In this document: one piece after another, positions 5,205 through 34,695 of the stretch | Numbering within the stretch: the stretch's first letter is position 1 | How the letters are laid out: every line of letters begins with the position of its first letter | NCBI GenBank assembly: GCA_965153455.1 | Contig: OZ234494.1 | Coordinates: 9,176,001 to 9,240,000 of the forward strand | Direction: 5' to 3' | Origin: Sphagnum compactum | Taxonomy: Eukaryota | DNA: 64,000 bases | The notes under the pieces: model-generated | Database searches by the model: none | Seen by the model: the letters and a program-made list of their open reading frames with translations, nothing else | Told to the model about the DNA's origin: nothing | Made by a program: the position numbers and the translations under genes

Positions 5205-6075
5205 AAAGTGTTGTCAAAGGTAGAGGTTTTGCCAATAGATATAAATTTAGCCATGAAAAAATTTAAAAATTTTCAAAAAATGAAAATTTAACCAAAAATA
5301 AATAAAGGTCTTGCCAACAAGTAGAGGTTTAGCCATGAAGAGATAAAATTTTGCCAATAGGTATAAATTTAGCCATGAAAAAATTCTAAAATTTTCAAAA
5401 ATTGGAAATTTAACTAAGAAAAAATAAAGGTGTTGTCAACAAATAAAGGTTTAGCCATGAAAAGATGAAAGTTTTGCCAAGAGGTATAGGTTTAGCCAAG
5501 AAGAATTAATTTTTTTTCCAATTTATAGAGGCTTAAGCAATAAAAAGTAAAGGTTTTACTAAAAGGCAAAAGTTTAGCAAAAAACAAATAAACATTTTAT
5601 TAAGGTTTAGAGGTTTAGTAAAAAAGAACTAAAAGTTTCTCTAAATGGTAGAGGTTTAGCTAAGAAAAGATATAGGTATTATTGAAAGTTAAATATTTAG
5701 CTAAGAAGAGGTTAAGGTTTTGTCAAGACATATAAGTTTAATCAAGAATAAATAAAACTTTTGCCAATGTTTAGTGGTTTAACCATGAAAAGATGGAAGG
5801 TTTGTCAAAAAATATAAGTTTTGCCAAGAAAAATTAAAAGTTTTGACAAAAGGTAAAGGTTTAACCAAGAAAATATATAAGTTTCGTTGAAAAATAACGA
5901 TTTTATTATGAAGAGATAGAAGTTTTACCAAGAGATAGAGGTTTAGCTAAGAAGATAAATCTTTATAACACGTAAAAGTTTAACCATGAAAAGATGGAGA
6001 TTTTGCCAATAAGAGTTAAAAGTTGTGCCTAAAGACAAAAGTTTAGCTAAGAGAAAAGTTTAGCCATGAAAAAAC
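5205..6075. repeat. Degenerate AT-rich tandem array (~20-bp subunits, ~40-bp dimers, one ~120-bp higher-order duplication)
   Basis: Recurring GGTTTAGCCA(T/A)GAA and GGTTTTGCCAA motifs; ~5225-5345 closely resembles ~5346-5470. Confidence 0.7.
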
Positions 6076-9000
6076 AGAGAATAGGTAAGTAAGGGGTTGG
6101 TATGTAGAAACAAAATGTAGGTCAATAATGTAGCTAGGTCAGTAGGGTAACTAGGGAATTAGGGTGATTATGTTGGAGGGTAGTATGGTCAGGGTTGAGA
6201 AAAAAACACCCAAAAAATAAAAAGGATCAAAGGTCAGCAGCCCAAAAAGGTTGATTGTGTTACAATGTTGGACAGCAGGGTCAACTGGTGCACTGGTGAG
6301 TGCTGGTTCACTCTGGCCCTCATCCCCAAGATGAGAACTGAATTACAAACTAAAACTCGCTTACATTAGTTGACAACATCCCAAAGGAAGGGGCAAAATG
6401 ATCTTTAATCATTTATCTTGGTAATTGAGTTAAGAGTAAATAAACCCATTTGGAATTTTGAACAAAACCGTCCTTTTCTCAAGGTTCCAGATGACGGCGG
6501 AGAACCCATCTCTTGATCACTTGATTCTATTTGATGTGTCATGCGCTACTACATTGGCACCCAAAACTATTGAAACTAGTAAAATCACACACATGAAACA
6601 TGCACACAATCCAATGTACTCACTTACAAACTGCATGAATCCACAGTTCAAAACATACATAAAACAAAACTTGGGACCAATCCAACATCCTCCGATGCCC
6701 TTGGTGTGCTCCAAAAATCTTGAAAATGCTAAAGCTGAGACTCCAGATACACTTATTGGGAATCAACTTTCAAACATGAAAAAGCTGATACTTATTCACA
6801 GTGAATAACAAATAAACCCTTACCAAAAAAAATTAATGTTTTGGAATAATACTTGATACCAGCCTTGGGGAGCGGGGGGAGGAGATAATTTTCACACTGT
6901 GACAACAAAAACAATGTGGAAATTCAATTTTAAGTGTAAATTCGAAAAGAATTGCCCAAATCTTGAAAATTGTCATCAAACTTTCAAAACCACAAAATTT
7001 TATTGTTAAAAAATTATTCTAAATTTAAAAATTAGAAATTAGAAAACAATAAATAAATAAAAACCTGCTTGACACATGTGACTTTGCCAAAGTTTATTAA
7101 CAAAGACACCAAATGAGAGAGGAAGTGAGAGTACAAGAGGAGAGGGCCTAAGTCTAAGTTGAATGCAATAAAGATTGTTGAAGACTAGGGGACTGATTGT
7201 CAATAACCCACCTCAACTACCAACTACGTGTAACAAGTTTGCAGCAGGAGATCCTATTTGGATACTATTTGTATTGAAGCAAAAAGGAAATGGAAATTTT
7301 CTTATATGGAATCCCCAGGAATGAAATCAAAGAGAAGAAGGCCTTATGTATGTCATGAATAATTTTGGGCTTGAGGTTTGACAGATATTAGTCATGTGCA
7401 CAACAAACGGATGTGCAATGACATCTTCACGTTGATTCACAGTTGATTCACATAGCTACAATGTTTCCCACCATTAATTCACATCACATGTTCACGTGGA
7501 CCAAAGTGGAACCAGCAGCCGACCAATTGTCTCATCTAAGAAAAAACCTGAATAAAACATCAAAACTGGTTTGGTTTATACATTCTGCATTGCCTAGAAT
7601 AAAACCATTGCAGAAAAAGGAGTAGCAATTCCTAGAAGAAACCACAGAGAACAAAGATTAACCAGCAGGGAACACTGGAATTGCTAGGAGCTCTGCAACC
7701 AGTGATTGCACTTCATCAGTTCGGTGTGATTGTCAGTTTCTAATTGCCAGCAGAGGCTCGGTCTCAGAATAGACAGAAAAGCACCGACCTACTCATCCAT
7801 GTTTATGGCACTCTCTCAGTGATATGTTAGTCATGCCACAGAATCAGACACCAGCTGCTCAGACACAAGCCTGACATATATCTGAGATTGCAAAGAAAAC
7901 TCCACAACAACCAATTTTGAAGGTGGTAATTATGTCAGTTCCATAGAGTCAAGGAAAGAATGAGCAAACCACAGGAACTGTCAACATACATTTGACACAG
8001 AACTTAGTCCCTGTTTCATAGGAGCCCAAAATTTGTTGAGGCTGCTGAACATGGAGCTGCTAGTTCTGCATCATAGCAGTCCCAATCAAGCAGCACATCA
8101 CTTCTGGATTGAAAATTTTCTCCTATGCCTGCATTGCTGCACAACTGTGGCATTTCAAATGGCTCCAAATAAACTAACAGAACAAAATAGATCTTCAGGA
8201 GCGTTTTTAGCCCATTTCATAGCCCCTGGAACTCTAAACCTCAATGTGAAACTAGTTGTCTGAGCATCAGACAGACGGTTCACTAGCGAGTAGCTATTCT
8301 GGGAGGATGGAGAACTAGGAGGTATTGAAAGTTGCTCACCCCATTACAAACAGACTATATCTAATGCCTCTGCAATCAAGCAAAACCAAGTACAGAAGAG
8401 GACAGTACGTTGAATTGAAGCATGCTGATGAGGACAATCCATGAGGCGTAAGGGTGGCTGTACTTGTTGCTAAAGTGAAACCAAGCGTGTCTTTGCCATG
8501 TGAAGGTGGACCTCCATCAACTTGTTCAAATCCAACCAAGTTGAAGCCTTTCATCTGTAGTCAGTGGGCTTCCATAAGCTCATTCTCTGGCACATACACC
8601 ATCAAGATACCACCTCTAGCCAACAAATTGAGGTCAGAGTCAAATTTGTGTTCACCCACTGTGGTGATTGAGCTTACACAACATGTCCCATGGCAGAAAG
8701 AGAGGGGCAAAGAATGTGCCACAGTTTGGTTAGTTTCAAACAAGCTTGAAGTCAACCTGCCTTACTTTCCTTTTAAGAGTACTCCAAATATTTCTGTAGC
8801 TTGCTGACTTCCAACAGCCACATTTGGTGTCTGAAGCTAGAATCATGATATCTTCTCTTGAGAATCTCTCGGATTGCATCCTTGGGACAATCCATGCATT
8901 GATCAGCATTTGATATGGAACCAAGCCACTGCTGCTGCTGGTCAAAATCTGGATAGAGGCCAAAAGCTCATAGATGATGCACACTTTGTATGCCAGACTG

Positions 9001-17155: not shown

Positions 17156-19591
17156 TATTACGAGAAAATGTGGTGATTTGCAATTGGCTTTGCAACTCAG
17201 TTTTTAACTAGTTGCAATGACCATTTGTAGCACATTGTAATTCAATGTCTTTTTGTTCAAACTTGACTACTATCAAACAAATCGCATGAGTTGCAACGAA
17301 TGTAGTTTGTATGTAAAATTGTATACATATACAACTTATGCAACTCAATTCGAATTGTGCAACTATTGTGCAATTTTTATGTAACTAATTTGCAACTACA
17401 ATGATAACATCAAAATGTTATTTTTTATCAATCCATTAAAATTTGAGACATGACATTCTGGGGATTTTTGGGTGAAATTTATTTATGTTTTGAAATGTTG
17501 ATCTCCACCATTCAATATGAATTATCCATTTTATATGGCTTTAAAGTGTGACATGTCGTGTATTCGAAAATTGCCACATGGCATGTTAATTGAATTTTGA
17601 AAAAATATTTCTTTATTTAAATATTTAGGTAGGTCGATATATAGGCATAGGTAGGTAGGTCGGTAAGTCCTACCTACCTAGGTATGTAGGTAGAAATTAA
17701 GTAAATAGTACATACTTACATATATCTAAGTAAGACTAGATACGTAGGACCTACTTACATTACAAACCTATTTACCTACCTAGGTAGGCAAATAAGTAAA
17801 AAAATAAAAAGGTAGGTGAACTAAAAAATAACCATGTTTAAATTTTTATTTTATTTTATGTTTTGTCTTTAATGTTAAGTTATTTTCAAGTCATCCCAAA
17901 TTAACACATGTATTTTAATGTGAACACACAAAGTACTGACACTTTCTTTATATCATTTGTGAATTGAAATTCATTAACAACATGTGGGTTAAATTTTTTA
18001 TTTGCACAATAGTTGCAAACTAGGTTGTGATTAGAAAAATAAAATTTATCACATTCTTTATGTTCATTTTTAATTTAGTAAAATGTGCAACTTAAAAATT
18101 GATTATTTAATAATTATATGTGAATGTATTATCAATAATAAATTATCCCAAATAATCATTCTAATCAATCTAATTTTTGAATTAATCAATCTAATTCAAT
18201 TATTTATTTATTTGTCAATAATTTAATAATTTCAATTCAAATTAAATAATTAATCATTTGGATTATTTATAGCTAACTAATCTAATTTAGATAATTAGAT
18301 GATTGGTGAATTCAAATAATTAATTTTCAGATATTTTAATTTAGATAGTTAATTATTTAAATAAAAAATTTGACAAATTACCTAAACTCAGATAATTAGT
18401 AATATATTACCTAATTTTCATTTTTAAAAATTACATATCTAAATTAATGAACAAACTAATAACCTAAATTAATTTAATTAATCATTAATAGTTAATTATT
18501 CAGCCTAATAAATTAATTCATAATAGTTTGAAATTTTAAATATAAATGAAAAGTTAATATTGAATAAATTATTGAAAAATAATTCAGGTAATAATAAATT
18601 ATAAATAATAATTATGAATTGGGTAGAAGACATAATTTTCAAATAATTACTTATCTGAATTAATCTATTTAATTCAGATAATTTGTTAGTTAGTAACCTT
18701 AGATAATTTCCTCTTTGATTTCAAATAATTTATAATCAAATAACTAATTATCTTAATTTAAATAATCATTTATTATTATTTTTTAAATTAATTATTGAGT
18801 ACCTAAATTTCAAGTAATTAATTATCTGAGTTTTATTTTAAAATCCAATTTTAAAATTAGTGAGTTAGTTAATTATTAATAAAATTATTTATTTGACTCA
18901 ATTAACAAATTGATTATCTGAATGAAATTGATTGATTCATATTAACTATTGATTCTTTAGGCTAATTAATTAGTTCACAATTATTAAGTAAATTAAATAT
19001 TAGTTAATATTTAAAAGTTAATAAGTTATTGAAAAAATATTTCATTATTAAACATTAAGGATTAAATATGATTTTTTTATTTTATTAATTTATTAATGGA
19101 TGAACAATAAGTGCAAAATAATGGAAAAATAATAATTGTATAATGGCAACATAATGACATAACTAATCGTATCAATGGAAACCATAGTTGACAACTAATT
19201 ACAAATGTTATATTTAATGGACAATGAAAATGTGCACATGTGGCATGATCATATGTGTCAATATTGCACATTAGTTGTAATGTAATTAATGATTGGATGT
19301 TACATTTACATTAGTGGTAATGTAGTTGCCACATGTATTTAAAGTGCAATTTGCTAAAAAATCAAACTTGATTGATTACATTTATATGTATGATGTGTAT
19401 ATTATTACATTGTATAAGTGTCCCATTTGCAACAAACTTACAACTACATTACAACTCCTTGATTTTATAATGTGACATTTTATTTATTAATTGCACATCT
19501 TTTCATGTTTTAATTGTTATGTAATTGTATATTAATTGTTTTGGAGCTCTAGTTGCAAGGTGTTTTTTAACGGACGTTATTTCTCATAATG
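17156..19591. mobile_element. Possible decayed non-autonomous CACTA-type element
   Basis: Left end TATTACGAGAAA and reverse complement of right end CATTATGAGAAA both resemble CACTACGAGAAA via C-to-T changes. 3-bp flanks are ATA/GTA. Many subterminal TTGCAAC/GTTGCA motifs; very AT-rich non-coding interior. Confidence 0.4.
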
Positions 19592-23905: not shown

Positions 23906-26029
23906 TACAAGTGACAAAAATCTATCCATGACTTGTCCACTAGATGATGTACATGTGATGATAAATAATAATTTAAGTTTTGTAATAACAATAATATAAT
24001 CATGACAACTACTTAATCTAGTTGGGCTAAGTTATGGTAGGCAATTATTTTAATGTAAGCTAGGTTAGAATATGGAACCTAACATAGGTTACATATGTAG
24101 ATAATAGGTAGGTAGGTAGGCCTAGGATAAATATTTGGGTGTAGATAGGTAGGATCCTAGATTTATTTCATGAATACAAGTTTTTTTTATATCGGTTCAT
24201 CCCATATATCTCATGCATTTTGAATGTTTGAAGTGCAAACCATGAGTAATCCATTCTTTCAACTACCAATATAATTTACAAAACTGAACTTGTTAACAAA
24301 TGATATGGGATAAATCGTAATGAAAGGGATTAGAACACTATGTAATATTAAAGTCAATAAGTAAACCACCATACACTTAAAAACCTAAAGGAGGTTGAAT
24401 CATCACATATCAATCTTTTGTTATAACATTGAAAGAAATTTTTAACCTTCTAGCTAACATTTCCAATGCCACAAAAAACGCTCACTGGTTAAGGAATGAG
24501 GCAAATATGAGTTGTTTCATGTAAAGGGGTTTATATTTCATGGTAAGCCTATTAAAATAATTTAGGATTTTGAAATTAAATTCTTTGGTCAGTTCCATTG
24601 CCTTCGTAATACAAAGAAGTTTTGTAGATCCCTAGTTGACATCCATAGGTTTTTATATCATTACAAATGGATTAAAAATGAAGAAGTTATGGGGTTTGAA
24701 ACTTAAAGGGGTCTAAACTTGTTTTTCAAAAAAATTGAAACAAAATATCACTAGTAGTTTCCCTTTTTTTCTTGCATTTTCTTTTTTGCTCCTTTGCTTT
24801 TGATGCTTATAAAACAATTGTCCTCCTCCAATTTACACCCCAATCACATAAAAATTGTTCAATTTTATTAAAGGATGAGGAAGATATTGGAAAATGTTGT
24901 GTGCAGGTTTGTGTTGGTATTGAGTGGTTTTATCATATCACATCCTTTGTCCCATGTAGAAAAACATTGTCATATATTCACACAATAAAATACATATTGA
25001 TTAACCTACTATTTAGTCTACTTAATTAATTAATTCAAAAATATGACATATCCACACCATAAAATGTTTTCTACTTAGCCTACCTACATATTATATATTA
25101 TTTATCATATTTACTACTTACAACATAACTTATCTAATTAATTAAATTATACAAAAACACTTTCACATATCAACACAATAAAATGCCTACTACATAGTCC
25201 ACCTTAGATATCACCTATTACCTATCCTACTTACTAACCATTACTTATTGCTTAACCTACTTAATTAATTAATTACCCTACTACCTATCATTTGGCCTAT
25301 TTGAAGATTTAATTACATGGCCAAATGCATTGAACTAATGAATCTTGTTCTGTGTGGAATTTGTAATAAGTTAATATCCTAGACCACCATCATGAAAACC
25401 AACCTTTTTTTTCATGACTATATATATATACATATCCTTTAGTTAAATTAAAAATTAAAAATGTTAATGTCATATTTTTGGGAGATTTTCAATAGTTGGA
25501 ATTTGATTGAAATTTATGAAAGGACATTAGATTTTGTTACATGGTTGAAATAGGTAGTAAAAAATAAGTAGTTAAAAATTTACTTTCATTTTGTCTTTAA
25601 ACCAAAATTGGTTAAATTTTCTTGTGAATTAATGGCATTTTAATTTCAACAAAAAATTAACAAATTGAAACAAAATGCATTTTCAAGTAATGTTTAAAAA
25701 CCTTATCCAACTTAAATGACAACTATAATGAATTGTTTAGATTCACTCAAAATCATTTTTAAAAAAATCCGATCATTAATGCAACAATCCCATGTAACAT
25801 TTATTAAAAAACATGTTCACAACTACACAAAACCCTATTATGTTAGAAATTGTAAATAATGGTCCATTTATACCATTTCAAGTGGTCCTATGAAATTTTC
25901 ACAACCCTACCAAACCATGTTACACATTTAACACATAGTTCATTCAAGAACATTAAAGGAAAAAAATAGGATATTAAATCTTATAGCTTTATTTGCCAAC
26001 TCACTTTTTTCACATTTAGTTAAATGTAT

Positions 26030-26968
26030 TGTAATGCGAAGGTAGGTGGACAGATTCAGTGTGAACACTGAACTGTGTTTGGGATCTAGGTCTGTTTGAG
26101 GCGGCCACCTTTTGTTTTCGGCGCTCATTACTGCTGCATGGAGTGCATGGTTGCTTTCTCCCTTGCTTTGTGTGCTTTAGGATAATCTTGGGAGATGGCG
26201 GCGGAGAATGATGAATGCTGATGGTGCCGAATTGATGAAAAACGGGCGGTGACGACGAACGGTGAGGCTTCGGAGGGAAGCTTACGGAATCTCGGAAAGC
26301 TTTTGTGTGGCTCTGGAGGTGTGGAGTGCATCCTTTTCCCGGACGGCAAGAAGGTTTAGCTCGGAAGGTAGGAAAGAGAGAGGAGAGACAGACAATTTTG
26401 GTTGGTGTTAGAGGAGAAAGATCAGGAGGCTAGAATGGGATTAGGAGAATAATTTTGGGAGGTGTGTGGATCTGTAGAAGCTGGAACTGTAGAAGTTTGG
26501 TAGTTGGATAGACATGGTGATGGTGTAAAGCTCTATAGTTAGGTGACTTTGGCTGAACGCCTGAATTTCCGCTGCGCCTGGTAGTTAGTCAAATGGTTGT
26601 TGTTGCTGCAGAAGAATTAGAGAGAAAGAGAAAGAGAGTCGGAACAGCACTGAAGCTGTTGTTTTGTGAGTCTTCTGATGTCCCGAGAGCTTGTGCTTTC
26701 GAGATTGTACATATTTTGTAAATGCAATGGAAAGTTTCTTTGTTTGATACCTGTGTGAGCGGTGAAGAAGAAGAAGGATGCTTGAGGTTGGACGTGTTGT
26801 TGTGTCTGTACATCTCCGATCTGTGAGGTGGGGAGGAAAGAGCCGGTCAGTAGTTGTTGTGTGAGAAGGTTTGGAGTTCTGTGTGAGTAGAGAAGATCAG
26901 CAGAGTTCAGTCGACAGGGTTCGTTGGCCACAGTAGATGTGTTGTGCGTTCTATGGACCCCTCCTTTT
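26030..26968 (+). repeat. 5' LTR (lacks terminal CA, abuts PBS)
   Basis: Starts TGTAATGCGAAGG and matches 33306 onward. By-eye comparison gave 16 substitutions (all transitions) plus one 1-bp indel. Confidence 0.95.
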
Positions 26969-26986
26969 TGGTATCAGAGCATGGTT
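26969..26986 (+). promoter_or_regulatory. Primer binding site for initiator tRNA-Met
   Basis: TGGTATCAGAGCATGGTT; TGGTATCAGAGC is the canonical plant tRNA-iMet PBS. Confidence 0.92.
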
Positions 26987-27034
26987 CCGATGTCTGAGAG
27001 TTTGGTAGCACCTGTAGTGGTCTAGATAGAATGA

Positions 27035-27704
27035 ATGTCAGTGATCATGTCTTCGTCTAGTGGCGAAGGAGTTCCGGTGGAACCTGTGAATCAGGAAGAT
27101 CGTGAGCTGAACATCATCCGTAGATTTGATTTCGTCACTATTCAGAATGGCCCACAAAGAAGGGCGGCGATTCTGCGTTTCTTAGGATTTGGAGTTGTGC
27201 GTCTAGTAGGGATAGATCCCGACGAGGCTAGAGTAGGAGACATTGCTGTTGAGATAACGCATAGTGGTTTCCACACAACAGCCCGAGTTTGGCTGAAGGT
27301 TACCGATGGAGCAAGGGCCTGGGCCTACACATCAGAACTACAGGAGAACTTTTACTATACTTCCTACCTTGCGTAGGGTGGATCCTGCGTATTCAGCTAG
27401 ACAAAGTGCACTGCCGAGGCTGGGAGATATCTGGATCCCCAAGTCTGCAGCTTCACCGAATCACTTTGTGCGATTGTTCATACCAGGCATAGAAGACCTA
27501 TTTCAGGCGGGCGACCGATTGCTTCGGGTTGAACATAGTGGATCCCGATCCCGCCTCATTAGCTGGCGAATCTGGCGAAGCCAGAATGGCGAATGGAGAT
27601 TCCAGCAGGAATCAACTGATGAACAGAAGTTCGTTACTATTCCATCTGTTTATCCACCATTGAAGCCGATCCATGAAGGAGTGCAGGCCGAGTTCGATGG
27701 ATGA
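27035..27704 (+). CDS. Extra ORF of unknown function between PBS and gag (~222 aa if one +1 frameshift at 27350-27353 is corrected)
   Basis: ORFs 27035-27376 and 27306-27704 join as ...ELQENF/TILPTLRRV... when one T of the TTTT run is removed. The two halves share motifs. Confidence 0.6.
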
Positions 27705-27932
27705 ATCGGATCGCAGTTGGTTTTGTTTCAAGGATCAGAACCGAGTACAGGAGCTAAGATTCTGAGTGATTTTATTTGTGCATCTGTTTTCCTTTTGAAA
27801 AGCTGTGTGTGGGTGTGTGTGTGGAAGGGTTGGACTGCAGCAAATAAACAGTTGTTGAGTTTCTATATTTTTGAGGACTTTGTGTCTATAAGCAGTTTTG
27901 CAATTTTTCTGTCCTCATTACGCATCTGCAGA

Positions 27933-30900
27933 ATGACTAGTCCACAGGGCATGGACAAATTGTTCTGGGGGCGCGATCATGAAGACGTCAACGATTGGGC
28001 GGAAAGGCTCAGTATGGCTGCTGAGTTGCGCGACCTCAATGCGGACAAACTTTTCAAGATTGCCAAGCTCAATCTGAGAGGCAAGGCCCGGGAGTGGTTC
28101 AGAAAGCTGCAGCCGGCGCCGGCCGACTGGCTTGAGCTGAGAACACTGATTTTGCAGAAGTATGGCAATGTGGACACTGACGACATTCGAATGAAGCTCG
28201 ATGTCATCAAACAGGAACCCAAGGAGCGGGTGCAGAAATATTTTGAGCGATTGGATAAACTGTTTCAGCGGGGGAAAATTCCCGATGCCGAACAGAGGAG
28301 GCGATTTCTGGGTAAGTTGAAACCAGAAATTAGGAAGATATGTGTTGTTAGAACGTACGCTGACATAGAAGAGATGGTGGGTGCTGCCACAGAACTCGAA
28401 AGGGTGCTGGGTGAGCTCGGCGAAACTCCATTCGAACCTCTAAAGGAAGAGCAGGAGGAAGGAGTTGCAGAGACAATGATGGAAAAGCAAGTCAATGCTT
28501 TCAATGATACGCTTATCAATTTCATGAAGGGGAATGTGTCTAAACCAGTCGCATCATCCTCTTCCAGCATGTCTGGAGTGTGCCAAATTTGTAAAGGAGG
28601 AGACCACACCGCCATAGCATGTCCGAGGCTTAATGAACCCCGGCCCAAATGTGCCAAATGTGGGATGCCGCATAGGACAGAGAATTGTGGTGTGAAGTGT
28701 TCTTTCTGTGCAGGGTTAGGGCACTCAGAGGACAGATGCTAGAAGAAGCCAAGGGATGGGAAGACGCACCCCGGATCAGCTAACTTCCTAGAGGTGATGC
28801 TGGATGATGAGGAAGCGACCCTGCGCCAGCTTAACAAGCTGTGTGGGGGTGAGAACTTGTTCTCCTACACTCGGGTACCAAGAAGAAGAATGCCTGTGGA
28901 GGTGACACCAGCAGCGTCAGGACTAACTCCTGATCCAACAATCGAAGGAGCAGGAGCCAATCGGGAGGAGTCTGTCAGATCGAAGATTCTGTCCCATTTT
29001 ATTAAAGGGAAGATATCATTGACGCCAATGGAGACAGTGATGATGATACCAGGAGAGTTGGAGCACCTGGAGAATCTGGTGAAGGTAGCTTGGAAGAAGA
29101 AAGATGTGGAGGCTGTAAACACTCAAGTGTCGATGGTTTCAGCCGTCCCAACACTTAGACGTCTGTATATCAGCAAGACGCACAGGAGCAAAACGCTCCA
29201 CCTTTCGGTCGAAGTGAACCAGTGTTTAATTGAAGGACTGGTGGATACTGGAGCATCCATGTCAATCATGGCAGCTGCAGTAGTTCGAGAGCTGGGTCTA
29301 ATGCATTTAGTGTCTGGATCGGAGACATACAAGACGGCCTTAGGTGCCATTACACAGGCACTCGGCCGAATTAGTGAGGTACCGATAAAGGTCGGGGGAG
29401 TGCAATGCAGGATGACTTTCATGGTTGTGGATACGGATAGCTATGACATTTTACTAGGGCTTGATCTGCTGATCAAGATTGGCGCGATTGTGGATGTTGA
29501 GCAGGGACTGATCCAAGTCAGACGAGGTCCTGGGGCTGATGTGGAAGTGCTGCCACTCACCATGGTAAACTTGATGCAGAGATCGGACTCAGCCACTGGT
29601 GACTACAATAACGATTGTACTGGGAAACACCCATCTGGAGAATCGGAGGCAATGGACGGAGCGTCCTACTTGTCTCAACAGAGCATTAGTGAGCAAATCG
29701 CCGAACTGGAATCTGAGTATGATTCTGGCTCAAGCGAAGACTCTGATGAAGGGAATCAAGCGGTGGGTACGACTGAGGAAGAATTTGAGTTCGGGAATAT
29801 CGAACTTGAAAATTTAGTGTTGTCGGAGGGGCCACAGCAAATTCTGCAGCTCATGCTGCAGGACAAGGCTGCTGATTTCATGAAGGAGGAGGTCATTGAC
29901 AACGATGACTATGCTGACTGGATCCAATGGGCTGCTGATGCTGAGCAACGCAAGCAGAAGCCCTCGGAAGCAAGGAATGCAGGACAAGAATCTGTACTAC
30001 TGCAGTTTCAACAGATGGAGGTCGTTGACCCGTACGACTGTGTCAAGGAGCGAATCATGAAGAACCCCAAGGAGGATACACGGTGGGGCGAGATTTGTCA
30101 GAAGATTCGAATTGATCAGCACCTGGACAAAGGGATGGAACGACAGCTGTGGACAGTCCTAGAGCAATATCAAGAGGTATTCGCCTGGAACAAAGGGGAG
30201 CTTGGGTGTTGCAACGTTGGAGAACATCTAATCGACACACAAGGGTTCCCACCTTGTAAGGTAGCCCCTGGTCGATTGTCATATTGGGAGGAGACTGAGG
30301 TAAACAGGCAGATTAATGTGTTGGTTGAGTTGGGAAAAATGAGGCCAAGCAACTCAGCATACGCTTGCCGGGTAACTCTACCTGTCAAGAAGGATGGAAG
30401 CATGAGATTCTGTGGGGACTACAGACCCCTCAACTTACAAACTCGGAGGGATTCATTCCCTATGCCCCTAGTAGAAGATGTGATATCTCAATTGGGGAAG
30501 TCAGCATAGTTCACTACACTGGATTTACAATCGGGATTCTAGCAGATCAGGATGGCTCCTGAGGACATGGGAAAGACAGCGCTTGTTACCAAGAGCGGTC
30601 TGTTTGAGTGGACTGTCATGCCATTCAGACTCAAAAACGCCACGAGTACCTTTACGCGAACCATGACCGAAGTCTTCAAGGATTTGGGGAACTCATTCCT
30701 GAAAATTTTCGTTGATGACCTCAATGTCCACAGTAAAGAATGGCAGGATCATCTTCAACATCTGGGAGCTGTACTCTCTAGACTCAGGGAAGTGAACCTG
30801 AAATTGAACCCGAGCAAGTGCTGTTTTGCTGCAGGAAGTGTTGTTTTCCTAGGACATGTAGTCAGCAAAGAAGGGACTAGGCCTAACCCTAGTAAGATCG

Positions 30901-33260
30901 ATGCGGTACGGGAATTTTCGGCGCCTACAACAGTCGTCAATGTCAGATCCTTCCTAGGATTGACAGGGTACTACCGCAGATATATTAAGGGATATTCGAA
31001 ACTGGCAGGTCCTTTGTTTGAACTCACTAAGAAGGATGTGGTTTTTGTCTGGAACCAGGACTGCCAGAGGGCGTTTAACGCTTTGAAGAAGGCACTTATA
31101 GGAGCTCCAATTCTGGTGAGGCCCAATTTCAAGGAGCCCTTTTTCCTTGATGTGGATTGGTCGACCAAGGGAGTTGGTGCTATCCTGTCGCAGAAAGAGG
31201 GTAGATTCGAGAAGGTCATAGCCTACGCCAGCAAGGCATTGACGGTGGCACAAAAGAAGTTTCACCCCATGGAAGGAGAGTGCTATGCTTTGATCTGGGG
31301 AATCTTACACTTCAGACAGTACTTGCACATAACTCATTTCACATTGAGGACGGACCATAAGCCGCTCGAATGGTTGGCGACTGTATCAGATGCACATGGA
31401 AGAAGGGGTAGATGGATTGACCTGCTGCAGGACTACAGCTTCAAGATAGTCCACAGGCCAGGAGTGAGGCATGCGAATGCTGATGCCCTGAGTCGGAATC
31501 CAGTGGGGCAAGCTATGGATGATGAGGATTTCCATCAGGAAATCCAGGATGATCAGCACACACAACATGGAGTGGCCGAGACGGCTGAGAAGATATTGTC
31601 TGTTCGGCATGGTCAGCATATGGAGTGGCGTGGGAACAGGAGGCAGTTGAGGGAACATACTGAGCATCGCGGGTGTCGTCCCGGGATCAAACATTGGCAC
31701 AGCTCGGATCCCCACCACCTGTTTATGATTGAATTGGTGACTGCAACTGATTCAGGGGAGGAGGTGACCCCAAGCGCAGAACGGTTGGATGTAGCTGAGG
31801 ATGAAGACCTGGAGGTTGATCAGGGTAAGCAGAGACATTGGAAAGGCCAGGTCAGGTATTATAACAGAAGACAGCAGCTAGAACTGGTTCTAGCTGCTCA
31901 AGGAATGTCTGAGGTCGGAGGCCATGAAATCAACTTGACCATTGTGGATGAAGCAGACAAGAGTGGAGGTGAGATGAAGGGCCCTGACATCTGGCAGGAT
32001 ACGACCTGTCTGGCACTCTTGAAAGAAGGAGTGTTGCCAGAATTGATTGAACTTGAAGAGAGCAAGAGGGTGAGAAAAAGAGCAGCCAGCTACTGTTGGA
32101 AGGAGCAGAAGCTCTTCTTCAAGGATCTCTACGTACCCAGACCTGAGGAGAGGAGATCACTGGTACTGCAGATGCATGAGGATCTGGGACACTCGGGTGA
32201 ATAGAGGCTCTTGTCCGAGATCTGTCGAAGGTATTTCTGGCACTGTCGAACTGAGGACGTCAAATCGGTGGTCAGGAGTTGCCAGCAATGTCAGCTAGTC
32301 AAGAGTGAAGGAAGTGTCCGATCCGGGGATGAGAGGCTCAAAAGCATCCCTGTCTGTGATTTGTTTTACAGAGTGGCGATGGACACCGCAGGGCCACTGC
32401 CTGAGACCAAGGCAGGAAACAAGTATATCCTTGTGGCTATCGACCATTACTCCAAATGGTGTGAAGCCAAGGCCGTGGCGGATCATGGTGCTAGAACGGC
32501 AGCCAGGTTTCTTGAGGACGATTTGATTTGTAGATATGGAGTACCTGGTTTCATATTGATTGACAACGGAGGGGAGTGGGGTGCAGAGTTTGAAATTATG
32601 TGCAAGGACTACGCTATACAACATCAGCGCACTGCACCTCAATGGCCCCAGTGCAACGGGATGGCGGAACGCATGATCAAAACCATCAAGCATGGTATCA
32701 CAGTTCTAGCCACGAATCCTGCGAATGTGGATTGCTGGGATGAACACCTGGCTAAGGTCTTGTTTGGGTACAGATGTGGGGTCCAGGCGAGCACCAAGTT
32801 CTCGCCATTCATGGTTCTAACCGGTCGATCATCGCGACTCAGAGCTGACAACTATCTAAGTGCGCTGACTGGTGTTGTGGATGATGGAGTTGATGTTGAA
32901 CAGATTGCAGCACAATTCCTGGAAAAGGTAAGGCTCATAGCAAGCATACATGAGAGCGTATTGCTCAATGTAGAGCAGGCACAGAAGAGACAGCGAAGCA
33001 CGTATGCAGATAGGAAGGGCAAACACCTGTTTGAAGGTCTCATTGCTGGAGAGACTATGGTCAAGATGAAAAGGCCAGGCAAGAAGCGCGCGTTGGCCGC
33101 AAGCTGGGAAGGCCCATACCAGTTTGTTGGGCATGTGGATGGGAAAGGGAACTATGACTTTGAGGAAGGTTGTCGCCTGTGTATCGTTCAAGATGCTGAT
33201 GGAAGGCAGTGGGAGAGATCAAGGAGGGACCTACAGATCTACCACATGCAACCCGATTAA
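27933..33260 (+). pseudogene. gag-pol polyprotein in a single frame with four premature TAG stops
   Basis: ORFs at 27717, 28794, 30552 and 32211 share one frame. Retrotransposon gag, three zinc knuckles, protease LVDTGAS, RT (DYRPLN, FVDD), RNase H (DVDWS, TDHKPL), integrase HHCC and DDE core, GPY motif. Stops at 28740, 30507, 30540 and 32202. Confidence 0.93.
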
Positions 33261-33285
33261 GCCGAGCTGAGGGACTCAGCTGTTT

Positions 33286-33298
33286 AAGAAGGGAGGGG
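33286..33298 (+). promoter_or_regulatory. Polypurine tract
   Basis: AAGAAGGGAGGGG, 7 nt upstream of the 3' LTR start, preceded by hairpin AGCTGAG-GGA-CTCAGCT (33265-33281). Confidence 0.85.
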
Positions 33299-33305
33299 TT
33301 ACATA

Positions 33306-34253
33306 TGTAATGCGAAGGTAGGTGGACAGATTCAGTGTGAACACTGAACTGTGTTTGGGATCTAGGTTTGTTTGAGGCGGCCACCTTTTTGTTTTCGGCG
33401 CTCATTACTGCTGCATGGAGTGCATGGTTGCTTTCTCCCTTGCTTTGTGTGCTTTAGGATAATCTTGGGAGATGGCGATGGAGAATGATGAATGCTGATG
33501 GTGCCGAATTGATGAAAAACGGGCGGCGACGGCGAACGGTGAGGCTTCGGAGGGAAGCTTACGGAATCTCGGAAAGCTTTTGTGTGGCTCTGGAGGTGTG
33601 GAGTGCATCTTTTTCCCGGACGGCAAGAAGGTTTAGCTCGGAAGGTAGGAGAGAGAGAGGAGAGACAGACAATTTTGGTTGGTGTTAGAGGAGAAAGATC
33701 AGGAGGCTAGAATGGGATTAGGAGAATAATTTTGGGAGGTGTGTGGATCTGTAGAAGCTGGAACTGTAGAAGTTTGGTAGTTGGATAGACATGGTGATGG
33801 TGTAAAGCTCTGTAGTTAGGTGACTTTGGCTGAACGCCTGAATTTCCGCTACGCCTGGTAGTTAGTCAAATGGTTGTTGTTGCTGCAGAAGAATTAGAGA
33901 GAAAGAGAAAGAGAGTCGGAACAGCACTGAAGCTGTTGTTTTGTGAGTCTTCTGATGTCCCGAGAGCTTATGCTTTCGGGATTGTACATATTTTATAAAT
34001 GCAATGGAAAGTTTCTTTGTTTGATACCTGTGTGAGCGGTGAGGAAGAAGAAGGATGCTTGAGGTTGGACATGTTGTTGTGTCTGTACATCTCCGATCTG
34101 TGAGGTGGGGAGGAAAGAGCCGGTCAGTAGTTGCTGTGTGAGAAGGTTTGGAGTTCTGTGTGAGTAGAGAAGATCAGCAGAGTTCAGTCGACAAGGTTCG
34201 TTGGCCACAGTAGATGTGTTGTGCGTTCTATGGACCCCTCCTTTTTGGTTACA
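33306..34253 (+). repeat. 3' LTR
   Basis: TGTAATGC...CTCCTTTTTGGTTACA; terminal inverted TGTAA/TTACA. Confidence 0.95.
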
Positions 34254-34695
34254 ATATATTTGTAACTTGGATTTATAGTCATACTTCAAGTTGCATTAGA
34301 TGCCTTGTGATGTTTAATGGCCCATGAATCACATGATAAGACAAAAACAATTACATTTTCATTTATTTTTTGATGCCCTTGAAAGTGGATGATATAAACC
34401 TCGATGGGGACATCAAATCCACTGGCCTCCCCCGGCGGCCGACACCTCGATGAAGAAGGAGACGACGATGAAGCCCCGAACGAATGTAGCGGCGTTCGCG
34501 CGCCTGATTGCGATTCAAAAAATCTTGTTGCGGATCCAAATCACGAGGTCGCAACAAATTTCTGAACCCAAAAAAGAACAAAAAAGAATTCCCGCCAGCT
34601 CGGTGTGTCGCCGGACTTCTGCAGAGCTATGAATTCAGCTAGTTGGGTTGTACGTGAATGATTGAGAGAGAGAGAGAGAGAGAGGAGCAATGCGG

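Follow-up and report, generated by a model that had tools for sequence, protein, structure and literature searches.

Permuted LTR borders in a Ty3/gypsy element of Sphagnum compactum and its relatives: possible integration from a joined LTR–LTR junction

Introduction

How can a retrotransposon acquire a right end that is not written beside the U5 region from which its long terminal repeats (LTRs) are copied? This question is raised by an element at positions 26030–34253 of a 64,000-nucleotide stretch of Sphagnum compactum DNA (assembly GCA_965153455.1, contig OZ234494.1, positions 9,176,001–9,240,000 of the forward strand), hereafter the window, whose coordinates are used throughout. The element, a Ty3/gypsy LTR retrotransposon, is present as a decayed copy. 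Its 3′ LTR terminates in TTACA; the 5′ LTR runs into the primer-binding site (PBS) without these bases, which are found again between the polypurine tract (PPT) and the 3′ LTR. A sequence-only reading of the window had proposed that such an element integrates from the junction of a 2-LTR circle. Here, the borders are described first in the window copy and then in related elements, and the routes that could lead from the one arrangement to the other are weighed.

Permuted Borders in the Window Copy

In pairwise comparison, the two LTRs are 943 and 944 nt long and 98.2% identical, with 16 mismatches and one gap. The match starts with TGTAATGCG at 26030 (5′ LTR) and 33306 (3′ LTR) and stops at ...CCCCTCCTTTTTGGT, that is, at 26972 and 34249, respectively. 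The homology of the 5′ LTR with the 3′ LTR therefore reaches 4 nt (TGGT, to 26972) further than the U5 end, into the PBS. After the shared TGGT, the 5′ LTR goes on as ATCAGAGC, with TGGTATCAGAGC from 26969 standing directly behind ...CCTTTT and no TTACA in between; the 3′ LTR goes on as TACA and then flank, and the last bases of the element, up to 34253, are ...TTTT-TGG-TTACA. Between the internal and the external LTR borders there is thus an offset in the direction opposite to that of retroviruses, the right tip being longer than the internal U5 border. The sequence TGGTATCAGAGC is the sole such PBS in the window with up to one mismatch allowed. We take it to be the site of the initiator tRNA-Met; no tRNA genes to match it were found in the window or in 19 loci. 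The 12-mer TGGTATCAGAGC is described as a conserved PBS with the tRNA complementarity typical of plant LTR elements (PMC7215508, in the excerpt available).

At the other internal border, the PPT (AAGAAGGGAGGGG) is followed by TTACATA (33299–33305) and then by TGTAAT, and the spacer together with the LTR start makes an exact 12-bp palindrome, TTACATATGTAA, at 33299–33310. All these features, namely the direct run of the 5′ LTR into the PBS, the TGG-TTACA end of the 3′ LTR, the spacer and the palindrome, had been placed correctly by the sequence-only reading.

A 12-bp palindrome by itself is not rare. TTACATATGTAA occurs once exactly in the window and three times with at most one mismatch, against a shuffle mean of 0.20, and 1 of 100 shuffles reached three such matches. 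What exceeds chance is its placement exactly at the PPT/LTR boundary, its identity with both LTR tips and its conservation across families. An isolated junction-like motif, GGTTACATATGTAG, stands at 24087–24100, outside any recognisable element, in surroundings that resemble the loose end of one contig from set X9 (see below) behind 33310, where TGTAA is followed by CCCTAAATTAGGTTACATAT. This motif may be what is left of a product almost devoid of LTRs, or it may have arisen by chance.

Conservation of the Layout in Related Elements

Related elements were sought by a single scan of metagenome contigs for the U5 motif followed by either continuation, of the PBS or the TTACA type. The scan returned 47 loci, of which 18 are contigs of related plant-like retroelements and 29 are unrelated chance matches. 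The internal regions of the related loci are 67–83% identical to the window element. Since the motif was part of the search pattern, the conservation of the U5 end in these loci is partly by construction. Among viral contigs, neither a relative by protein nor a pattern match was found, and the 18 pattern matches in prokaryote genome contigs are all due to chance (bacterial or archaeal records).

The two continuations proved to be strictly separated. All four loci with a PBS (L024, L028, L029 and L042) read ...CCCCTCCTTTT-TGGTATCAGAG directly, and they represent different elements, L028 and L029 being only 79% alike. With the window included, the terminal CA motif of a 3′ LTR is missing before the PBS in 5 of 5 junctions (...TTTT-TGGTATCAGAG); the 12-nt PBS is perfect in four of them and matches at 11 of 12 positions in L042. 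The seven distinct 3′ ends (L019/L022, L025/L040, L030/L034, L033/L041/L053, L036/L055, L037/L056 and L047) all read ...TTTTTGGTTACA, i.e., ...CCCCTCCTTTT-TGG-TTACA, followed by unrelated flank and never by a PBS. The L033 and L036 groups share homologous flank, which reduces these ends to six independent insertions rather than seven. Counting the window copy, direct LTR/PBS junctions stand at 5/5, and TTACA-type ends followed by a PBS at 0/8.

The PPT-side spacer lay outside the search pattern and is independent evidence. The three intact PPT junctions (L024, L037 and L040) are invariant, AAGGGAGGGG-TTACATA-TGT, and are continued by TGTGACCGG, TGTAGCCGAAC and TGTGACCGAAC, respectively. The LTR starts behind the spacer differ: TGTGACC in L024 and L040 and TGTAGCC in L037, versus TGTAATG in the window. 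TTACATA is kept in 4 of 4 intact PPT junctions, the window included, so that the gap between PPT and U3 is a conserved 7 nt versus about 2 nt at most in the canonical layout. L036/L055 represents a fourth family, with the PPT junction in a decayed version. The LTRs of L042 and L037/L056 are about 96% alike over 352 nt, and thus one family displays three of the four junctions, namely the direct PBS, the spacer and the TTACA end. Two junctions also occur within single contigs: the PBS junction and the spacer in L024, and the spacer and the right end in L040.

Three of these loci call for separate remarks. L024 (1–3018) has the direct PBS junction at 138–160 and PPT-TTACATA-TGT at 2880–2899, with about 2.7 kb between them and a single gag-like open reading frame (ORF) of 644 amino acids; it is probably a short non-autonomous derivative with the same terminal layout. 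In L036 (2389–2450), a 21-bp tandem duplication takes in the right tip of the LTR together with the first bases of the flank (two units of TGGTTACAGCCCCACTTCCTT) and is absent from the paralogous L055. In L037, the flank of the element (5867–8423) is about 71% identical to window positions 17159–19276; the metagenome host and the window organism share another repeat or a homologous region.

The element was also compared with one raw-read run (X23) and three contig sets (X1, X9 and X12) from three coded organisms; read depth in these data gives no copy number. In at least 12 raw reads of X23, the bases immediately ahead of 26030 are unlike and heterogeneous (agreement 0.61), and the left edge TGT is therefore common to copies at different sites. 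Among the matches listed, similarity to the window begins only at 33264/33265 in 7, 8 and 10 contigs of X1, X9 and X12, and it is lost after 33308 in 1, 4 and 5 contigs, respectively, which continue with other LTR sequences such as GACCGAAC. Thus, a 44-nt block (33264/33265–33308) made of a hairpin, the PPT and TTACATATGT is common to families whose LTRs differ. In one X1 contig, which belongs to another variant, unrelated sequence gives way to CCCCTCCTTTTTGGTATCAGAGCATGGTT and then to a jump to 27174, so that its LTR/PBS junction is direct; this contig reads CCCCTCCTTTTTGGTATCAGAGC... directly, with a loose end at 26958 and a joint at 26986. No insertion at 26968–26972 and no backward joint from the LTR end was found among the matches listed.

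The two observations that the sequence-only reading had named as speaking against itself, a normal 5′ LTR end in sister copies and a spacer that is not conserved, were both absent: the former from all junctions in the sample, the latter from the intact PPT junctions beside differing LTR starts and from contigs of three organisms.

A Proposed Joined U5–Spacer–U3 Intermediate

In reverse transcription, the 5′ end of the RNA, and hence the 5′ LTR, is the source of U5 in both new LTRs. The right end of the complementary DNA (cDNA) corresponds to the first base added to the tRNA, and the PPT primer determines the left one. In the window element, tRNA priming at TGGTATCAGAGC would set a right cDNA end ...CCCCTCCTTTT with at most a few tRNA-derived bases (TGG), and PPT priming would set a left end TTACATA-TGT.... 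The integrated ends observed start with TGT and finish with ...TTTT-TGG-TTACA. The only U5 that serves as a template has ...CCTTTT as its last bases ahead of the PBS, and the TTACA of the right tip is therefore not inheritable through U5; TTACA occurs at one further LTR border only, in the post-PPT spacer, at the left end of the cDNA. The claim of the sequence-only reading that the right tip is not makeable from U5 and must come from the spacer holds good. An integrated element that lacks TTACATA on the left and carries an added TGG-TTACA on the right is a circular permutation of the expected cDNA, which means that the U5 end must join the spacer and the U3 start before the final cut. We strongly infer from this arrangement of borders that a joined U5–spacer–U3 intermediate is needed.

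The proposed cycle can be described as follows. The post-PPT spacer would supply the five terminal bases TTACA in each round. The U5 end would be joined to the spacer and the U3 start to give ...TTTT-TGG-TTACA-TA-TGT..., and the integrase would cut this junction after CA on both strands (CA^TA^TG). The cut would leave two 3′-processed ends, identical to both observed tips of the element, with 2-nt TA overhangs to be inserted in the usual way, ends with 2-nt overhangs being the standard substrate of a DDE integrase. The joined form would most likely be the LTR–LTR junction of a 2-LTR circle.

The enzyme and the termini agree with such a cut. The window integrase aligns to the integrases of Ty3 (7q5b, E = 6e-11) and of prototype foamy virus (PFV; 3l2q, E = 7.5e-8), and D, D and E occupy the aligned catalytic positions, as expected from the DDE assignment in the sequence-only reading; the catalytic residue positions of PFV used for this check are those we take to be the accepted ones. 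The right end GGTTACA is an inverted repeat of the left ends TGTGACC/TGTAGCC (6/7). Hence, the GG of TGG forms part of the integrase site, and the assembled junction would be a near-palindrome of 16 bp with CA-TA-TG in the middle. With GGTTACA set against TGTGACC, TGTAGCC and TGTAATG, 7, 7, 7 and 6 of the 8 innermost positions pair, the last value being that of the window copy. The predicted junction sequence is palindromic with a CA-NN-TG centre, and the natural counterpart of this sequence inside the element is GGTTACATATGTGACC in L024 and L040, i.e., in two families.

On these grounds, we give about an even chance to the view that, in the families of this group, the ends found after integration are a circular permutation of those made by reverse transcription, and that the latter are joined and then cut by integrase by way of a 2-LTR circle-type route. 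Junction-type routes as a whole, the circle together with the template switch considered below, are probable. A stronger version is put forward tentatively, at somewhat less than even odds. It states that the whole group would integrate obligatorily from the LTR–LTR junction, that the attachment site would be assembled only in the 2-LTR circle from the U5 end, tRNA-derived TGG and the spacer, and that the integrase would act as a site-specific endonuclease on the palindrome.

Several points weigh against integration from a circle junction. The established view of 2-LTR circles, both for retroviruses and for Ty elements, is that they are dead ends. All the related loci were fetched via the conserved U5 motif, so that canonical relatives without this motif would be missed. 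The near-palindrome is also found inside every copy at the PPT/3′ LTR boundary, where the last two G of the PPT replace the GG of TGG; the integrase should therefore act there too and cut off the 3′ LTR, unless the site is shielded by its flanking sequence or by a bound primer. The TGG (or TGGT) needs an extra assumption, either a copied tRNA remnant or a template switch. Among the joints listed (15 of 20), all of which are skips, no LTR–LTR junction molecule was found, the runs being genomic or Hi-C DNA without circle enrichment. Finally, the candidate target-site duplication is imperfect: ATGTAT (26024–26029) and ATATAT (34254–34259) agree at five of six positions, with one G/A transition, and a 5-bp register does not match in the window copy. 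This duplication is known from one copy only, since none of the 18 related loci has a complete element or a 5′ LTR start with its flank. The register is unusual as well, 6-bp duplications being ascribed to 0.4% of plant elements (PMC6317226, in the excerpt available).

Thus, the circle-junction proposal of the sequence-only reading stands in part. The layout, its conservation and the need for joined ends speak for it; a ligated circle is only one of two routes that fit, the TGG calls for the additional assumption just mentioned, and the internal palindrome had not been addressed.

Alternative Explanations

The other fitting route is a template switch without any circle, which we consider unlikely, though by no means negligible. 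The plus strand ending ...TTTTTGG would switch, aided by a GG microhomology, to the minus strand where the PPT meets the spacer (GGGG|TTACATATGT) and copy TTACATATGT..., and the resulting linear cDNA with a right-end extension would be trimmed back to CA by the integrase. The PPT indeed ends in GG right before TTACA, the right end reads GG-TTACA, and both sites share GGTTACATATGT. Host ligation would be unnecessary, and the constant junction would be explained without imprecise end joining. Moreover, the predicted RNA pairing between the U5 end and the PPT (−23.6 kcal/mol) would keep the two regions together. However, every step of this switch is conjectural, and cleavage by the integrase would have to take place either well away from a DNA terminus or on an extension that is partly single-stranded. 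The T (or the whole TGG) of the junction must come from a PBS or tRNA copy in the template-switch route just as in the circle route. A ligated 2-LTR circle and a GG template switch fit the data equally well.

Non-canonical priming is improbable. According to this explanation, the minus strand would begin with a short stretch, TGTAACC, copied from GGUUACA where the PPT meets the spacer, and this start would then be moved to UGG before the PBS; or else some other unknown variant of reverse transcription would build TTACA onto U5. The translocation of a primer has an analogue in hepadnaviruses. The bottom strand of the right end, TGTAACC and then AAAAAGGAGGGG, is the formal complement of spacer GGTTACA and then of U5, and the complementarity of the U5 end and the PPT is consistent with such a transfer. 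Yet the perfect 12-nt tRNA-type PBS in four of the five junctions (11 of 12 positions in L042) argues for ordinary tRNA priming, no primer is evident for the short start, and we know of no precedent for such priming among LTR retrotransposons.

The conservation described above bears most heavily on the idea that the window copy merely lost TTACA(NN)TGG, or an equivalent segment, between two TGGT microhomologies at the 5′ LTR/PBS border, the spacer being coincidental. The copy is decayed, with six broken ORFs and 16 transitions between its LTRs, and TGGT does stand at both sites; but the LTR/PBS junctions are direct in 5/5 cases across elements and families, none of the eight TTACA-type ends is followed by a PBS, and the spacer is kept in all four intact PPT junctions. 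A one-off deletion is therefore rejected as a very remote prospect.

Equally hard to credit is a right end that is a copy of the first eight PBS/tRNA bases (TGGTATCA), with the integrase using the CA within this copy, or a TTACA that comes from the target: TGGTTACA and TGGTATCA agree at six of eight positions and both end in CA, but all eight right ends read TTACA and all five PBS read TATCA, with no intermediates, and the bases after TTACA differ at every site. As the window 5′ flank does not end in TTACA either, TTACA belongs to the element. A CA inside a PBS copy was accordingly rejected on account of the uniform TTACA and TATCA classes, and target-derived TTACA on account of the varied flanks. 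A second tRNA with a matching 3′ end has no support and is contradicted by the same uniform classes. Inheritance from the U5 of the 3′ LTR was rejected as well, since this U5 lies outside the template used for U5.

Predicted Pairing of the U5 End with the PPT and a Conserved Hairpin

The U5 end beside the PBS, CCCCUCCUUUU (26958–26968), is complementary to the PPT, AAGAAGGGAGGGG (33286–33298), and the energy given above is that of the RNA duplex predicted for the two. This complementarity could be a 5′–3′ cyclisation signal like the CYC5/CYC3 pair of Ty1. Both segments are invariant in the sample, and the pairing has no co-variation signal to read.

Between the pol stop codon and the PPT lies a perfect 7-bp hairpin, AGCTGAG-GGA-CTCAGCT (33265–33281), with a predicted folding energy of −9.5 kcal/mol. 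It is near-invariant in L024, L037 and L040 and is also present in contigs of X1, X9 and X12.

Domain Organization and Decay of the Element

The coordinates of the features are collected in Table 1. Pfam domains occur in the gypsy order gag–protease–reverse transcriptase–RNase H–integrase across six broken ORFs, and the element has the long direct repeats, domain order, DDE integrase of the rve type, PBS and PPT of Ty3/gypsy retrotransposons. A comparison of the reverse transcriptase/RNase H region with protein clusters led to Streptophyta-like clusters only. No chromodomain was found at E ≤ 0.1 in the integrase of the window element or of L040, both of which are decayed copies. No tyrosine recombinase domain was detected by Pfam in the six ORFs, where the rve integrase is present instead. 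Further copies of the element were not found in the window.

Table 1. Features of the Ty3/gypsy element and its immediate flanks, in window coordinates.
Feature	Position	Strand	Remarks
Candidate target-site duplication, left copy ATGTAT	26024–26029	+	
5′ LTR	26030–26968	+	TGTAATGCG...CCCCTCCTTTT
Conserved U5 end CCCCTCCTTTT	26958–26968	+	complementary to PPT
PBS TGGTATCAGAGC	26969–26980	+	abuts ...TTTT directly
gag, broken ORF	27717–28742	+	Pfam Retrotrans_gag, E = 1.2e-10
Aspartic protease region, broken ORF	28794–30509	+	Pfam Asp_protease, gag-asp_proteas, RVP_2
Reverse transcriptase and RNase H, broken ORF	30552–32204	+	Pfam RVT_1, RT_RNaseH, RT_RNaseH_2
Integrase, DDE type	32211–33260	+	Pfam rve, Integrase_H2C2
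Hairpin AGCTGAG-GGA-CTCAGCT	33265–33281	+	just upstream of PPT
PPT AAGAAGGGAGGGG	33286–33298	+	before spacer
Spacer TTACATA	33299–33305	+	bases 1–5 identical to the right tip
3′ LTR	33306–34253	+	TGTAATGCG...CCCCTCCTTTT (34235–34245), TGG (34246–34248), TTACA (34249–34253)
Candidate target-site duplication, right copy ATATAT	34254–34259	+	

All 16 mismatches between the LTRs are transitions. In addition, the window copy has A or T at many sites where all aligned reads and contigs have G or C; for example, position 27957 is G in 42 of 42 X23 reads. Such a pattern is typical of the deamination of methylated cytosines in a silenced copy.

Elsewhere in the window, a tandem array with a 41-nt period occupies positions 5227–5962, where 13 overlapping copies of a 122-nt unit can be aligned.

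Implications

For some four decades it has been debated whether the LTR–LTR junction can be an integration substrate in retroviruses; the question has been judged largely by the biochemistry of viruses that are able to integrate their linear DNA anyway, and the 2-LTR circle has been held to be a dead end since the 1980s. The elements considered here offer a natural case in which the layout of the genome seems to forbid the linear-end route, the right integrase site being written in the wrong place. If the circle-junction route is correct, circles or joined ends would be productive intermediates in at least one lineage, data on extrachromosomal circular DNA and the mobilome of plants would have to be read differently, and a simple system for testing the cleavage of palindromes by integrase would be at hand. 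From a practical point of view, software for LTR annotation will set the borders of the permuted group wrongly if it presupposes that the LTR ends are identical and that U3 follows the PPT without a gap. No description of a permuted-border layout was found in searches of the open-access literature, and the available excerpt of a survey (PMC6317226) makes no mention of it.

Comparison with Known Systems

The organization gag–protease–reverse transcriptase–RNase H–integrase, the tRNA-type PBS, the PPT, the TG...CA termini with a short inverted repeat and the rve integrase are those of canonical plant Ty3/gypsy elements (Metaviridae). Unlike these, the window element has a 5′ LTR without terminal TTACA, LTR homology that extends into the PBS, and a 7-nt spacer between the PPT and U3.

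Long-range 5′–3′ RNA pairing beside the PBS and the PPT is known for Ty1 (CYC5/CYC3) and for the bipartite PBS of Ty3. The PBS-adjacent U5 end of the window element is likewise predicted to pair at long range, but here the partner is the PPT itself.

In its formal layout, A1–internal–B1 A2 B2, the element resembles the PAT-like DIRS and Ngaro retroelements, a layout implying a joined or circular form that is re-opened elsewhere. The likeness drawn by the sequence-only reading is valid to this extent. It does not go further, because B is only 5 nt long (plus TA), the element encodes a DDE integrase and no tyrosine recombinase, and there is a candidate target-site duplication.

The closest parallel is the cleavage of retroviral 2-LTR circles. 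The integrase of PFV cuts the palindromic LTR–LTR junction in vitro, and integration costs the PFV junction just two nucleotides (PMC1180852); the HIV-1 integrase also cuts such a junction in vitro (PMC1905944), both according to the excerpts available. As in these viruses, the substrate of a DDE integrase would be a palindromic junction in which the U5 end meets the U3 start, and staggered cleavage behind CA in both strands would produce two 3′-processed ends in a single step; as with PFV, the predicted junction would lose only two nucleotides on integration. The linear cDNA of retroviruses, however, carries both integrase sites, so that their circle route is optional and disputed, whereas in the elements described here, known from genomic architecture alone, the right site TTACA is not encoded beside U5, and the joined form appears to be obligatory.

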